Below, one piece after another: positions 44,220 to 52,925 of a stretch of DNA of 64,000 bases. The position numbers and the translations under genes were made by a program. The notes under the pieces are model-generated. The model searched no databases and was not told the origin of the DNA. It saw only the letters and a program-made list of their open reading frames with translations. The DNA comes from Methanotrichaceae archaeon (GTDB lineage Archaea > Halobacteriota > Methanosarcinia > Methanotrichales > Methanotrichaceae). The first letter of the stretch is position 1. Each line of letters opens with the position of its first letter. Location: contig CAVWIG010000017.1 of assembly GCA_963754945.1 (NCBI GenBank), forward strand, positions 192,001-256,000, given 5' to 3'.

Positions 44220-44631
44220 CCACTTTTTTCTTCTTGAACTGGCTCACAGTTCGAGCACTACGTTGTCCTTGTGGCTTATGGTCATTTGGATTTAGGCAAA
44301 TGTCGTAGTAATTTGGAGGCAAATTAGAGGGCAAATGGGGAATAAAAACGTATATAATTTACGTCTTTGTAGTTATTTGCTTCGATATGCACAAATATCC
44401 GTGCAAGGTCGACATCAGGATGACCGAGCCACAAGAAAAAAATAGGTGCATACGCCGTTTGGAACTTCTGGGATTCGGTCTGAAATTATGCCATCGATGC
44501 CGTATTTTCGCGGGCGACTTCTTGTAGAACGACTGAACAAGTCAGGATCGCAGATAGCTCTTTATACTACGACGATTGCCTTTTATATGGCTATTCACGA
44601 TTGTGAATCGTCGAAAAAGGGAAAGAGGTGA

Positions 44632-45225
44632 GTGGGATTGATCATTACAAGACTGCTTGGAGTATTGGCGGTTATCAGCCTTCTAATGGCTCCTGTCCTT
44701 TCAGAGCAAATTGCAAAGACCTGTACATGCACGTCCATCGGTTGTCCCAGCCCAAAGGTAATGAGCTGTTGCGAGGGTAAACAGGATAGCGCCTGCTTTT
44801 CTCAAGAATGTCACTGCCCAACCCTTGTATCGCCATCCGGCAGCACGGATGTCTATGATCCTGGCTATTCTTACTTTGGGGAGAGCAGTTCACGGACATA
44901 CGGCAGACAGGGTCCGTCGACAGGCAGTTCCGGCTCAGTTGGTGAGAGCAGGTATTCGGGCCCAGCTCCAGACAATTCTAACAATGGGCCGCCGGATCTG
45001 GATGTAGTGGAATATCTTCCGCCCTCCGCAAGGCACGTATTCGATGTCCTGGCAACGAATGGCCCTCTGACACAAAAAGACCTGATCAGCAAGACCGATC
45101 TTCCTCCCAGAACTGTCAGGTACGCCCTGAACAGGCTAAAGGGTGAGGACATCCTCGAAGAACGCTTCTGTTTTCAAGATGCGCGTCAGAGCCTTTACAG
45201 CTTGGCCATGACCGGCCTGAAGTGA
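44632..45225 (+). CDS. Hydrophobic leader + Cys-rich domain + winged-helix (MarR-like) domain
   Basis: N-terminal hydrophobic helix, 8 Cys, S/G linker, then LPPSARHVFDVL...LTQKDL...LPPRTVRYAL.RL...F.FQDARQSLY.L. Confidence 0.8.
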   Translation: MGLIITRLLGVLAVISLLMAPVLSEQIAKTCTCTSIGCPSPKVMSCCEGKQDSACFSQECHCPTLVSPSGSTDVYDPGYSYFGESSSRTYGRQGPSTGSSGSVGESRYSGPAPDNSNNGPPDLDVVEYLPPSARHVFDVLATNGPLTQKDLISKTDLPPRTVRYALNRLKGEDILEERFCFQDARQSLYSLAMTGLK

Positions 45226-51087: not shown

Positions 51088-51158
51088 GCCGGGGTGACTG
51101 ACCGGTTAAGTGCGCGGCTGCAGACCGCGAGAATTGGGTTCGACTCCCAACCCCGGCC
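51088..51158 (+). tRNA. tRNA-Cys(GCA)-like cloverleaf with atypical C73, abutting cysS
   Basis: Acceptor GCCGGGG/CCCCGGC, D stem ACT/AGT, anticodon stem CGCGG/CCGCG with loop CT-GCA-GA, T arm TTGGG-TTCGACT-CCCAA. Followed by C, T, then ATG. Confidence 0.85.
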
Positions 51159-51159
51159 T

Positions 51160-52617
51160 ATGATTATCTACAACACCATGAGCGGCAAGAAAGAGCCGTT
51201 TCAGCCAATTCACAAGAATCGCGTCAACATATTCGTCTGCGGACCAACTGTTTACGACAACTCTCACATCGGACACGCCAGGACCTACATAGCATTCGAT
51301 GTCGTCGCTCGCTACCTCAAGTACAAGGGCTTTTCCGTGTTTTATCTTCAGAACATCACCGATGTTGACGATAAGATCATACAGAGGGCTTCGGAGCTAG
51401 GCATTGAGCCGGACGCTTTGGCGCGCAAGTTTGAGCGAAGGTACTTGGAGGATATGCAGGCGTTGGGCGTGACAAATGTCAACCTCTACGCCAGGGCGAC
51501 AGAGCACATTCCCGAGATCATCAGCCAGATTGAGCGGCTCGTGGAGTTGGGTTTTGCTTACGAGACGGAGACTGGTGTTTACTTCGACGAATCTAGATTC
51601 GAGGACTTCGGGAAGCTGTCGCATCAGACTTTTGAGGAGGTTGCGCGCCACAGGATAGAGCCCGATCCGACCAAGAGGAACCCGGGAGATTTCTCTTTAT
51701 GGAAGAAACGGGAAGACGGGGCTAAGGTAACCTGGGATTCGTCTTGGGGAAGAGGACGACCAGGATGGCACATCGAGGACACGGCCATCACGGAGACCTA
51801 TTTCGGACCTCAGTACGATATCCATGGCGGAGCAATGGACCTAATATTCCCCCACCACGAGGCAGAGATCGCTCAGATGGAGGCGACGTCAGGAAAAAAG
51901 CCACTGGTTAGGGCTTGGATGCACACCGGCTTTCTCAACGTCAAGGGCGAGAAGATGTCTAAGTCCCTGGGAAATTTCATGACCATAAGGGAAATGCTGG
52001 AGAGATGCGATGCCGAAGCTTTCAGATTGTTCGTCCTCCTTGCTCACTACCGATCACCAATTGATTTTTCCGAAGAGGTGCTGGAGCAGTCTCGAAAGAG
52101 CCTTGAAAGAATTCGCCATCTGATCAAGGTCATCGAAGAACAATTAGAAACGCCCGGCGAGATCTCGGAAAGCGAAGGTGTCGACCCAATACTGATCAAG
52201 GCAAGAGCTGAGTTCTTGGATGCGATGGACGATGATTTCAATACGCCTTACGCGCTTCGAACCGTATTCGACCTGGTGAGGGATATAAACCGCAGAATAA
52301 ACGAAAAAAACGTATCGAAGGAGACTTTAAAGGATACGAAACTGCTGCTGGAGGAGTTCGGCAGGGTCTTCGGAATCAGCTTTTCTTCCGGGTCAGAAAA
52401 ATCCATAGGAAAAGAAGAAGACATGGCTCGCGACCTGATCGAGCTGCTTATCGAAATAAGGCAGAAGCTCCGCGAAAAAAAGGACTGGCAGCTCGCCGAT
52501 GAGATACGTAACAGGATGAAGGAATTGAACGTCGTGTTGGAGGATGCCGAAGGAGGTGGCAAATATACACTTCGAGGAGAGAATTGCCTTAATCGCAAAA
52601 CTTATAACCTTCAATAA
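51160..52617 (+). CDS. cysS: Cysteine--tRNA ligase
   Basis: MIIYNTMSGKKE, CGPTVY, HIGH, NITDVDDKII, GRPGWHIE, FPHHEAE and KMSKS. True start is ATG 51160; the track start 51094 lies inside the tRNA. Confidence 0.96.
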   Translation: MIIYNTMSGKKEPFQPIHKNRVNIFVCGPTVYDNSHIGHARTYIAFDVVARYLKYKGFSVFYLQNITDVDDKIIQRASELGIEPDALARKFERRYLEDMQALGVTNVNLYARATEHIPEIISQIERLVELGFAYETETGVYFDESRFEDFGKLSHQTFEEVARHRIEPDPTKRNPGDFSLWKKREDGAKVTWDSSWGRGRPGWHIEDTAITETYFGPQYDIHGGAMDLIFPHHEAEIAQMEATSGKKPLVRAWMHTGFLNVKGEKMSKSLGNFMTIREMLERCDAEAFRLFVLLAHYRSPIDFSEEVLEQSRKSLERIRHLIKVIEEQLETPGEISESEGVDPILIKARAEFLDAMDDDFNTPYALRTVFDLVRDINRRINEKNVSKETLKDTKLLLEEFGRVFGISFSSGSEKSIGKEEDMARDLIELLIEIRQKLREKKDWQLADEIRNRMKELNVVLEDAEGGGKYTLRGENCLNRKTYNLQ

Positions 52618-52642
52618 CAAGTGTTAATTCGGTGAGCTTAAA

Positions 52643-52925
52643 ATGAGGGATCTATTTTGCCAACCCCGGATATGAACAGCCGAGTTCGAAGATAGAGCGC
52701 CTGCCGCCATCAGCAAAGCTTGTTCTTAAAGTGCTGGAGTCAGGCAGCCTTTTAACGCAGAAGGACATAATAAGAAAGACGTATCTTCCGGCAAGAACCG
52801 TAAGGTACGCTTTGAGCAGACTTAAAGACGAGGACCTTCTTCAGGAACGCTTCTATTTCCAGGATGCGCGCCAGAGCCTCTATGGGCTGAATGCCCAAGC
52901 CCTGGAGGTGACGACGACCGCATAA
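52643..52925 (+). CDS. Winged-helix (MarR-like) regulator requiring a +1 frameshift at TTT-TGC
   Basis: RBS GGTGAG and ATG 52643 open a 10-aa ORF. The +1 frame, bounded by TGA 52644, encodes ...KIERLPPSAKLVLKVL...RTVRYAL...DARQSLY, paralogous to the C-terminus of 44632-45225. Confidence 0.8.

Follow-up and report, generated by a model that had tools for sequence, protein, structure and literature searches.

A conserved two-frame cassette with a single cysteine codon and a proposed +1 frameshift at the start of a small winged-helix regulator gene in methanogens

In the 64,000-nucleotide stretch of Methanotrichaceae archaeon DNA analysed here, hereafter called the window (assembly GCA_963754945.1, contig CAVWIG010000017.1, positions 192,001 to 256,000 of the forward strand), the gene for a small winged helix-turn-helix (wHTH) protein follows cysS, and its beginning is divided between two reading frames. 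The start codon with its ribosome-binding site opens a leader of ten codons, and the wHTH domain is encoded in the +1 frame, which joins the leader at a UUU codon followed by the only cysteine codon of the leader. An 18-nt cassette with these features recurs in methanogens of four orders. The comparison of these sequences makes it probable that a programmed +1 ribosomal frameshift of some kind gates the synthesis of the regulator, and we lean, with less confidence, towards a frameshift that also senses the supply of Cys-tRNA(Cys). An initial annotation of the window had described the gene as that of a transcription factor whose synthesis reports a shortage of Cys-tRNA, and this interpretation is supported to the limit of what sequence comparison can give. 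The host genome is an assembly of 54 contigs that is 88% complete, and the window lies on contig 17.

How is the start of the gene organised? On the forward strand, the initiating Shine-Dalgarno (SD) sequence GGTGAG (52631..52636) is complementary to the 3′ end of the organism's own 16S rRNA, GGATCACCTCCT, with a duplex energy of −7.8 kcal/mol, and serves ATG 52643, six bases downstream. As the initial annotation had stated, and as is read directly in the sequence, this start gives only the peptide MRDLFCQPRI* (52643..52675, forward strand; ATG AGG GAT CTA TTT TGC CAA CCC CGG ATA TGA), which closes at the TGA at 52673-52675. Within this zero-frame leader lies an SD-like element, GAGGGAUC (52645..52652, forward strand), which ends 2 nt before the slip codon and has a stronger complementarity to the own 16S 3′ end than any other sequence of the region (−12.2 kcal/mol, as compared to −7.8 kcal/mol for the initiating SD). 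It is followed by the slippery sequence U UUU (52655..52658, forward strand), where the P-site codon UUU at 52655-57 can re-pair at 52656-58, and by UGC (52658..52660, forward strand), the zero-frame A-site codon for cysteine and the proposed sensor codon.

The wHTH frame is directly preceded by TGA 52644-52646, which overlaps the ATG (aATGA), and is open from 52647 to the TAA at 52923-52925 (the 92-aa open reading frame (ORF) P0001). The +1-frame coding part of the regulator (52659..52925, forward strand) comprises 88 codons and the TAA stop, to which leader codons 1-5 add up to 93 aa; translation with TTTT 52655-52658 decoded as one step indeed yields the 93-aa wHTH product (P0122) that had been predicted. 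The first ATG, GTG or TTG of the wHTH frame is GTG 52731..52733 (forward strand), at residue 29 of P0001. Because this position is inside predicted helix 1, GTG 52731 is unlikely to be the real start. The motif LPPSAK, placed by the initial annotation in the +1 frame upstream of this GTG, does lie there, at residues 19-24 of P0001. In the own genome the exact cassette pattern occurs once, and a scan with a relaxed A-site codon for cassettes built on other codons gave 54 matches, among which an ATG, a short zero frame and a long +1 frame come together only at this locus.

Next, we investigated whether this arrangement is found in other genomes, using the 18-nt pattern ATG AGG GAT CNN YTT TGY. 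It is present in 96 of the 301 genomes of a sample of the class, for which the control with the reversed pattern gave at least one match (in G001) among the matches listed, and in 52 of the 401 genomes sampled from the phylum, where the control matches were 0; the carriers include single-contig genomes. The +1-frame LPxSAK helix follows at 48 of the 51 distinct pattern sites, one of the 48 being shortened by a stop, and of the remaining 3, one is a chance match within a different ORF, one has TAA after five codons and one is a decayed copy. A protein search detected homologues in 23 of 41 related genomes, nearly all of them headed by ATG AGG GAT CNN YTT TGY. We also assembled a sample that does not depend on the pattern, consisting of the 80 best loci of 588 relatives (found with two wHTH peptide motifs in named public genomes) together with the loci from the 41-genome protein search. 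In this sample, 92 of the 104 distinct wHTH ORFs carry the cassette, and the 12 others comprise 8 long paralogues, which have a hydrophobic and Cys-rich N-terminal extension and an ordinary start, 2 variant cassettes, 1 TGG variant that is in frame and 1 ORF that starts at a normal ATG. The named carriers are Methanothrix, Methanocrinis, Candidatus Methanoperedens, Methanosarcina, Methanolobus, Methanococcoides, Methanoregula, Methanoculleus palmolei and Methanocellaceae, which belong to four orders in the NCBI taxonomy, Methanotrichales, Methanosarcinales, Methanomicrobiales and Methanocellales.

The identical two-frame layout is present in both genomes of the same genus, with CTA CTT TGC in place of the CTA TTT TGC of the window, and the TTT of the window is therefore a local substitution of CTT. 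In addition, DNA contigs of two other metagenomes span 52636-52700 with no insertion or deletion. The TTTT run might have been a homopolymer error or a private mutation, with relatives reading TTT GCC in frame; instead, the relatives keep the two-frame layout. Judged from these comparisons, the cassette arrangement is far beyond chance and is no sequencing error.

Among the 92 cassettes, 47 have CTT and 45 have TTT as the P-site codon of the putative recoding signal, with a T following in every case, and the zero-frame A-site codon is TGC in 52 and TGT in 40, with none other. The slip site had been proposed as TTT-TGC; YTT-TGY is kept in 92/92, and the general site is accordingly CTT-T or TTT-T, not TTT alone. 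The conservation of a leader-frame TGY in orthologues, which had been suggested as a check, thus holds for every cassette-bearing homologue. The SD-like element takes the form AGGGATC in 75 cassettes, AGGAATC in 12, AGTGATC in 4 and AGGGATT in 1. Among the 112 sites, the leader peptides begin with MRDRFC in 58 and MRDRLC in 33, the rest being few variants, and the zero frame closes after 6-16 codons at 111; the one other site has 32 codons, and the leader of the window has 10.

Several features separate selection on bases from selection on amino acids. Synonymous replacements of AGG and GAT were never seen, even where they would be silent in both frames. Phenylalanine at the slip site is always encoded by TTT, in a genome that uses TTC at 24.3 and TTT at 12.9 per 1000 codons. 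Free variation is seen at the base that occupies leader-frame position 3 and, in the wHTH frame, position 2 of the third codon: among the 112 sites it is T in 79, A in 21 and C in 12. The constraint, as far as these alignments indicate, is on nucleotides and not on residues, as expected of a recoding signal. Moreover, the Methanoperedens copies have leaders that are 3 codons longer and keep AGGAATCGTCTTTGC; therefore, the conserved module is the SD-like element with the slip site, and not the distance from the ATG. Such longer leaders, with an ATG and 3 extra codons (for example, MNSRRNRLC), are found in Methanoperedens and relatives at L081, L082, L087, L091, L093 and L096. A variant seen in Methanoregula (L126, L129, L130 and L137), ATG AGT GAT C, matches the 16S 3′ end better (GUGAUC). 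RNAalifold, applied to 40 diverse cassettes from −30 to +80, predicted 0 pairs of conserved RNA structure. The tRNA genes that ARAGORN found in the own genome (35 in all) include tRNA-Phe(GAA), tRNA-Leu(GAG) and three tRNA-Cys(GCA).

Is the +1 frame translated upstream of GTG 52731? The linkers between the slip site and LPPSAK vary in length and composition. In 34 non-overlapping pairs, their differences fall at codon positions 1, 2 and 3 in the proportion 66/66/136 when read in the wHTH frame. The ratio of synonymous to non-synonymous changed codons is 81:138 in this frame and 37:179 and 35:188 in the other two, which corresponds to synonymous shares of 81/219 as compared to 37/216 and 35/223. 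Of about 2,020 codons in each of the other two frames, 175 and 243 are stops; the wHTH frame has 0, a figure that is partly built in by the selection of the sites. Between the slip site and helix 1, any ATG, GTG or TTG is found at 19 of the 112 sites, and an ATG at 6. On this codon-level evidence, the wHTH frame is translated from the slip site onward, and the stretch upstream of the GTG is under purifying selection.

A few natural variants have the two frames merged. In P0003 and P0036, TGG replaces the TGA and an in-frame ATG lies 2-5 codons upstream (…KWGIVFA…), and a further in-frame TGG variant begins at L122:5881. These variants look like evolutionary escapes from the frameshift requirement. 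In public gene calls, hundreds of family members either have been given artificial starts (such as MIVFA, MDFA and MPPSAK, with Ile or Leu codons read as Met) or are cut to 57-74 residues, under names as different as MarR family and 'transcription initiation factor IIE alpha subunit'.

We then considered the connection of the cassette with cysteine. Each of the 92 leader ORFs has one Cys codon. The choice between TGC and TGT is silent only in the leader frame, and it changes Ala to Val in the product. The products are themselves poor in cysteine, with 12 Cys in 10,892 residues and Cys present in only 10 of 112, as compared to a share of about 1.2% in the long ORFs of the own genome. In the same domain, Cys is present in 8 of 8 unshifted long paralogues and in 10 of 109 cassette proteins.

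The neighbourhood of the cassettes provides the third line. The neighbouring ORFs within 4.5 kb were clustered by blastp and Pfam and NCBIfam annotation of a single representative from each cluster placed CysRS (cysteinyl-tRNA synthetase) near 22, SepCysS near 10, CysK near 10 and CysE near 6 of the 112 sites. O-acetylhomoserine sulfhydrylase/homocysteine synthase (MetY) is near 19 and MetX with CBS domains near 18, and ARAGORN places tRNA-Cys near 28 within the same distance. tRNA-Cys thereby accounts for 39 of the 57 tRNA genes near the sites, as compared to 3 of the 35 in the own genome. The linkage to cysteine genes that had been anticipated is present: tRNA-Cys, CysRS, SepCysS, CysK, CysE, MetX or MetY occurs at 45 of the 112 sites, and at 19 of the 38 that have at least 3 kb of flank on both sides. 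These counts are lower bounds, because the flanks of some loci are only 1.5 kb. By taxon, sites with such neighbours number 10/10 in Methanoregula, 4/4 in Methanoregulaceae, 8/11 in Methanothrix, 8/15 in Methanotrichaceae and 4/10 in Methanoperedens. The adjacency to cysS, on which the initial annotation had relied, extends to Methanotrichaceae and Methanoregulaceae, but was not seen at 13 named sites in Methanosarcina, Methanosarcinaceae, Methanolobus, Methanocellaceae and Methanoculleus. Taken together, three independent lines drawn from the sequences, namely the use of UGC and UGU, the Cys-poor products and the cysteine-gene neighbourhood, point to cysteine sensing.

How could a shortage of Cys-tRNA be converted into a regulator? 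From the architecture, the conservation, the +1 coding constraint, the 16S complementarity and the neighbourhood, we infer the slip, the way it depends on Cys-tRNA and the targets of the regulator as follows. Initiation would take place at ATG 52643, aided by the SD GGTGAG, and the ribosome would translate Met-Arg-Asp-Leu-Phe. Once the P site is occupied by UUU (in most relatives, CUU), the 16S 3′ end could pair with the SD-like element 2 nt upstream, and the A site would then hold the only Cys codon of the message. When Cys-tRNA arrives fast, the frame would be kept and translation would terminate after a peptide of 6-16 residues (10 here). When Cys-tRNA is slow, the peptidyl-tRNA would slip by one base (from UUU or CUU to UUU), GCC (Ala) would be read next, and the 93-aa cysteine-free wHTH protein would be completed. 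The slipping species would be peptidyl-tRNA(Phe) in the window and peptidyl-tRNA(Leu) in most relatives, in competition with the decoding of UGY. Finally, the wHTH protein would act on promoters, its likely targets being its own and those of the adjacent tRNA-Cys, cysS, SepCysS, cysK/E and metX/Y. The regulon likely includes the tRNA-dependent cysteine pathway (SepCysS), which is characteristic of methanogens. We give about even chances to the full proposal, that methanogens of four orders gauge Cys-tRNA(Cys) by the empty A site at one UGY, and that a cysteine-free factor then switches on the genes for tRNA-Cys, CysRS, SepCysS and the synthesis of cysteine and homocysteine.

Several observations weigh against a cysteine-gated frameshift. 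The slip would take place at codon 5, where the pairing of the initiating SD is possibly still in place. One RNA-library contig, from two RNA runs, matches 52667-52884 and begins 9 nt past the slip site, and none of the contigs of these runs bridges the site; the run search gave shares of at most 0.23 of the stretch. Many genomes have several cassette copies, the counts given above take in related genomes and are not independent of one another, and the neighbour labels depend on the single annotated representative of each blastp cluster. tRNA-Cys genes are not scarce in the own genome (3 of 35 tRNA genes), and no Cys-related neighbour was found within 4.5 kb at any of the 13 named sites (Methanosarcina 0/4, Methanosarcinaceae 0/3, Methanolobus 0/2, Methanocellaceae 0/3 and Methanoculleus 0/1). 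UGY could be kept for reasons other than sensing, as it fixes a G behind UUU and restricts the first +1 codon to Ala or Val. In the four Methanoregula AGTGATC copies, the TGA is immediately followed by a wHTH-frame GTG, which could start translation without a slip.

The three tRNA-Cys genes of the own genome and the 13 sites are in keeping with a frameshift that is real but constitutive, in which the cassette provides a fixed low yield of the regulator or hides its start and the Cys codon is kept for mechanics; the architecture and the conservation fit such a shift equally well. We nevertheless consider it unlikely, as TGC and TGT alternate (52 and 40 of 92) and are synonymous in the leader frame only, the products are about ten-fold depleted in Cys and the unshifted paralogues of the same domain are not, and three families show a strong enrichment of tRNA-Cys and Cys-pathway genes close to the sites. 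It is more doubtful still that the frame does not change at all, the ATG ORF being a regulatory upstream ORF and the wHTH protein starting at a non-canonical codon (for example, the conserved AUC of GGG AUC), by reinitiation, or at the GTG of the AGTGATC variants. The gene callers already give the starts MIVFA..., MDFA... and MPPSAK..., the GTG of the four AGTGATC copies is in frame, and the TGG variants show that the GIxF residues are translatable. However, the SD lies 5-8 nt before the ATG and hence 12-15 nt before the AUC, and a ribosome starting at the strong ATG would occlude the AUC. In addition, an ATG, GTG or TTG is lacking at 93 of the 112 sites in the stretch from the slip site to helix 1, the strict YTT-T (TTT, never TTC) and UGY would lack any role, and the free variation at position 2 of the third wHTH-frame codon fits reading in the leader frame.

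A change of frame at the RNA level or by a special tRNA, through transcriptional slippage on the T run, editing or a quadruplet-reading tRNA, is very improbable. A run of T4-T6 is present at the site in the window and in 45 of 92 relatives, but 47 of the 92 sites read CTTTG with three T only, a run too short for known polymerase slippage; the ARAGORN list of the own genome contains ordinary three-letter anticodons only (35 tRNAs in an 88% complete genome). We attach hardly any weight to an assembly error, a private mutation, a decaying pseudogene or a truncated 64-aa protein made from GTG 52731. The fragmented assembly (54 contigs, 88% complete) and a few broken relatives (L009 and L022, with TAA in frame, and a decayed copy in L008) would agree with such a view. 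Against it stand the same layout in 96/301 and 52/401 genomes, single-contig ones included, the independent DNA contigs with no indel and the purifying selection on the stretch before GTG 52731, and a start at this GTG would cost 8 of the 12 residues of helix 1. We therefore retain the programmed +1 frameshift, most plausibly one that responds to the supply of Cys-tRNA(Cys).

What kind of protein would the frameshift produce? The product matches Pfam HTH_24 (PF13412) over residues 26-65 with 22.7 bits (cut-off 21.9), and MarR_2 (PF12802) stays below its gathering cut-off (21.2 as compared to 27 bits). The AlphaFold2 model, built from a 12-sequence alignment, has a mean pLDDT of 67, with core blocks at 79-89 and a disordered N-terminus and tail. 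The predicted helices span residues 21-32 (PSAKLVLKVLES), 38-45 and 49-61, and it is the first of these that a start at GTG 52731 would truncate in this model, leaving the 64-aa protein mentioned above. A profile search of the PDB found one MarR-family chain (E 0.0095), and Foldseek against the PDB gave generic winged-helix matches only (MarR, Lrp/AsnC and TFE-alpha; best E 0.12); neither the fold search nor the profile search assigned a function, and no characterised member of the family was found. The protein shares the three-helix winged-helix fold with the small archaeal wHTH regulators (HTH_24/MarR-like proteins, Lrp/AsnC N-domains and TFE-alpha). It differs from them in that it has no ligand-binding or dimerisation domain beyond the wHTH of about 75 residues.

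The window contains a second gene of the family, the long paralogue at 44632..45225 (forward strand), which has the same wHTH together with a hydrophobic N-terminus and a Cys-rich stretch, an ordinary GTG start and no cassette. The domain in common, which had been recognised earlier, is 64% identical across residues 15-86, and that of the paralogue contains Cys in RFCFQ. A TATA-like box at 44580-44589 and a palindrome, ATTCACGATTGTGAAT, at 44593-44608, related to the palindrome of the regulator gene described below, precede the paralogue. Long paralogues adjoin cassette genes in several genomes, such as G018 and G019.

The regulator gene has a candidate promoter of its own, as judged from a TATA-like box, ACTTATAAC (52600..52608, forward strand), which lies within the end of cysS, some 40 nt ahead of the ATG. 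Similar A/T boxes stand at the same distance in homologues that have no cysS. An imperfect palindrome, TAACAAGTGTTA (52615..52626, no strand), is a candidate operator, and the consensus core of the family, ACAATTGT, is positioned between the TATA-like box and the SD. This core, allowing no more than 1 mismatch, occurs in the −70..−1 region of 53 of the 112 cassette sites and of 6 of 112 shuffled upstream regions. The commonest form of the palindrome is TAACAATTGTGA, with peaks at −37 and −24/−25 from the ATG. The palindrome suggests that the regulator may autoregulate. A scan of the own genome with the degenerate 12-mer gave 84 scattered matches and no clear regulon, and inspection by eye revealed no palindrome like ACAATTGT upstream of tRNA-Cys.

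Upstream of the regulator, a tRNA-Cys gene with anticodon GCA (51088..51158, forward strand; ARAGORN) and cysS (51160..52617, forward strand; ORF list and sequence) complete the locus. tRNA-Cys, cysS and the regulator are contiguous in this order, which is the most compact form of the association between the regulator and the cysteine genes. The cysS stop, TAA 52615-52617, is followed after 25 nt by ATG 52643, in agreement with the spacing given in the initial annotation. The ORF finder opened cysS at GTG 51094, which lies within the tRNA-Cys gene; ATG 51160 is likely the true start. As for the identity of cysS, the own copy (L032) shares a blastp cluster with L124:4391-5890, which matches Pfam tRNA-synt_1e at E 5e-114, as well as DALR_2 and CysS_C. 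Because tRNA-Cys ends 1 nt before the cysS ATG, there is no space for an SD before cysS. cysS may be co-transcribed with tRNA-Cys and then become a leaderless mRNA upon 3′ processing of the tRNA. The same offset of tRNA-Cys and CysRS, about 22 nt from the tRNA start to the over-extended ORF start, is seen in L064, L065, L075, L078, L103, L117 and L124. Among the loci of Methanoperedens and relatives, L082, L087 and L092 have a tRNA-Cys gene on the same strand, 330-460 nt downstream.

Other neighbours recur as well. A DUF1805 gene (PF08827) stands directly 3′ of the cassette regulator on the same strand at 13 sites; in Methanotrichaceae examples (L066-L068, L075, L076, L079, L094 and L117), it lies 250-420 nt after the ATG. 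It is possible that this gene is a co-transcribed partner of the regulator. At the Methanosarcinaceae loci (L046-L063, L104 and L105), genes for cysteine are replaced as neighbours by those for DUF169, a PHO4-type transporter and a corrinoid protein that binds B12, as well as by radical-SAM genes, and in Methanosarcina a NifH/frxC-family gene lies about 2 kb upstream of the site.

Archaeal precedents for such a cassette are few. In the available part of a 2021 review, the −1 event in fucA1 of Saccharolobus solfataricus is the only archaeal programmed frameshift shown experimentally, and +1 frameshifting in archaea is named only for a haloarchaeal virus (PMC8211752). The available part of a 2016 review agrees that fucA1 is the only reported archaeal frameshift (PMC5009743), and in these parts of the two reviews no +1 frameshift in an archaeal cellular gene is listed. 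fucA1 and the cassette are alike in that a cellular gene of an archaeon is recoded. They differ in that fucA1 shifts by −1 on an A-AAA-AAT heptamer in mid-gene, in one lineage and with an unknown regulatory role, and the cassette would shift by +1 in a prfB-like manner at codon 5 and is conserved over four orders. In the part of the GeneTack survey available, magnesium chelatase is the sole archaeal mention (PMC3711429); a shift at codon 5 would be hard to see by a method of this type. A full-text literature search, which did not cover supplementary tables, found no published description of the cassette. If the proposal is true, the cassette is the first programmed +1 frameshift in an archaeal cellular gene. 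The sensing of amino-acid or tRNA-charging status by archaea is largely unknown, and the cassette offers a concrete, testable mechanism, small enough at 18 nt to be moved into a reporter. Furthermore, hundreds of these regulator genes have mis-annotated starts in public databases.

Finally, we compared the cassette with known recoding and attenuation systems. According to the part of the 2016 review available, the shift site of prfB is CUU_U, or UUU_U in a minority of species, and an internal SD is its major stimulator (PMC5009743). Like prfB as described there, the cassette has a short zero-frame ORF first and the functional protein in the +1 frame, a CUU/UUU-U shift site with an SD-like element just upstream (here a candidate stimulator), and a slow A-site codon that, as proposed for the cassette, decides between termination and slip. 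The differences are equally clear. The A site of the cassette holds a sense codon, UGC or UGU, in 92/92, and that of prfB holds UGA; the slip would occur at codon 5 in an archaeal host, as compared to codon 26 in prfB. The spacer is 2 nt in the cassette and 3 nt in E. coli prfB. The product of the cassette is a putative transcription factor and not the factor that reads the A-site codon, and any feedback must therefore run through the regulon. The cassette would thus work like prfB, but is not a member of the prfB family, because the defining UGA/RF2 feedback is absent. The RF2 site was reportedly used with sense codons by Curran and Yarus to measure the selection rates of aminoacyl-tRNAs.

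That the A site holds a sense codon is also a feature of Ty1, where, as given in the same part of the 2016 review, the P-site tRNA-Leu on CUU of CUU_AGG_C slips +1 with the A site occupied by a slowly decoded sense codon (PMC5009743). The cassette resembles the Ty1 of yeast and the hungry-codon frameshifting of Gallant in the slip of a P-site CUU while a slow sense codon waits in the A site, and it differs from Ty1 in that Ty1 uses a constitutively rare tRNA with a fixed product ratio. For hungry-codon frameshifting, the available text of the review states that no example yielding a functional, starvation-specific trans-frame protein was known (PMC5009743). The cassette, if it works as proposed, would be the first case in nature of hungry-codon frameshifting with a functional protein as its product, and would fill this gap. 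Moreover, it would be an archaeal counterpart of bacterial attenuation and T-box control. In bacteria, attenuation and T-box leaders read out tRNA charging, with a tiny leader ORF that contains codons for the amino acid of the adjacent pathway or synthetase; to our knowledge, archaea have no T-box and classical attenuation systems of the bacterial kind. The cassette leader likewise holds a Cys codon, and Cys genes lie near 45 of the 112 sites. In contrast to the bacterial leaders, it has no predicted terminator or antiterminator hairpins (RNAalifold gave 0 pairs), and its proposed readout is a change of frame that yields a trans-acting regulator, instead of the termination of transcription in cis.

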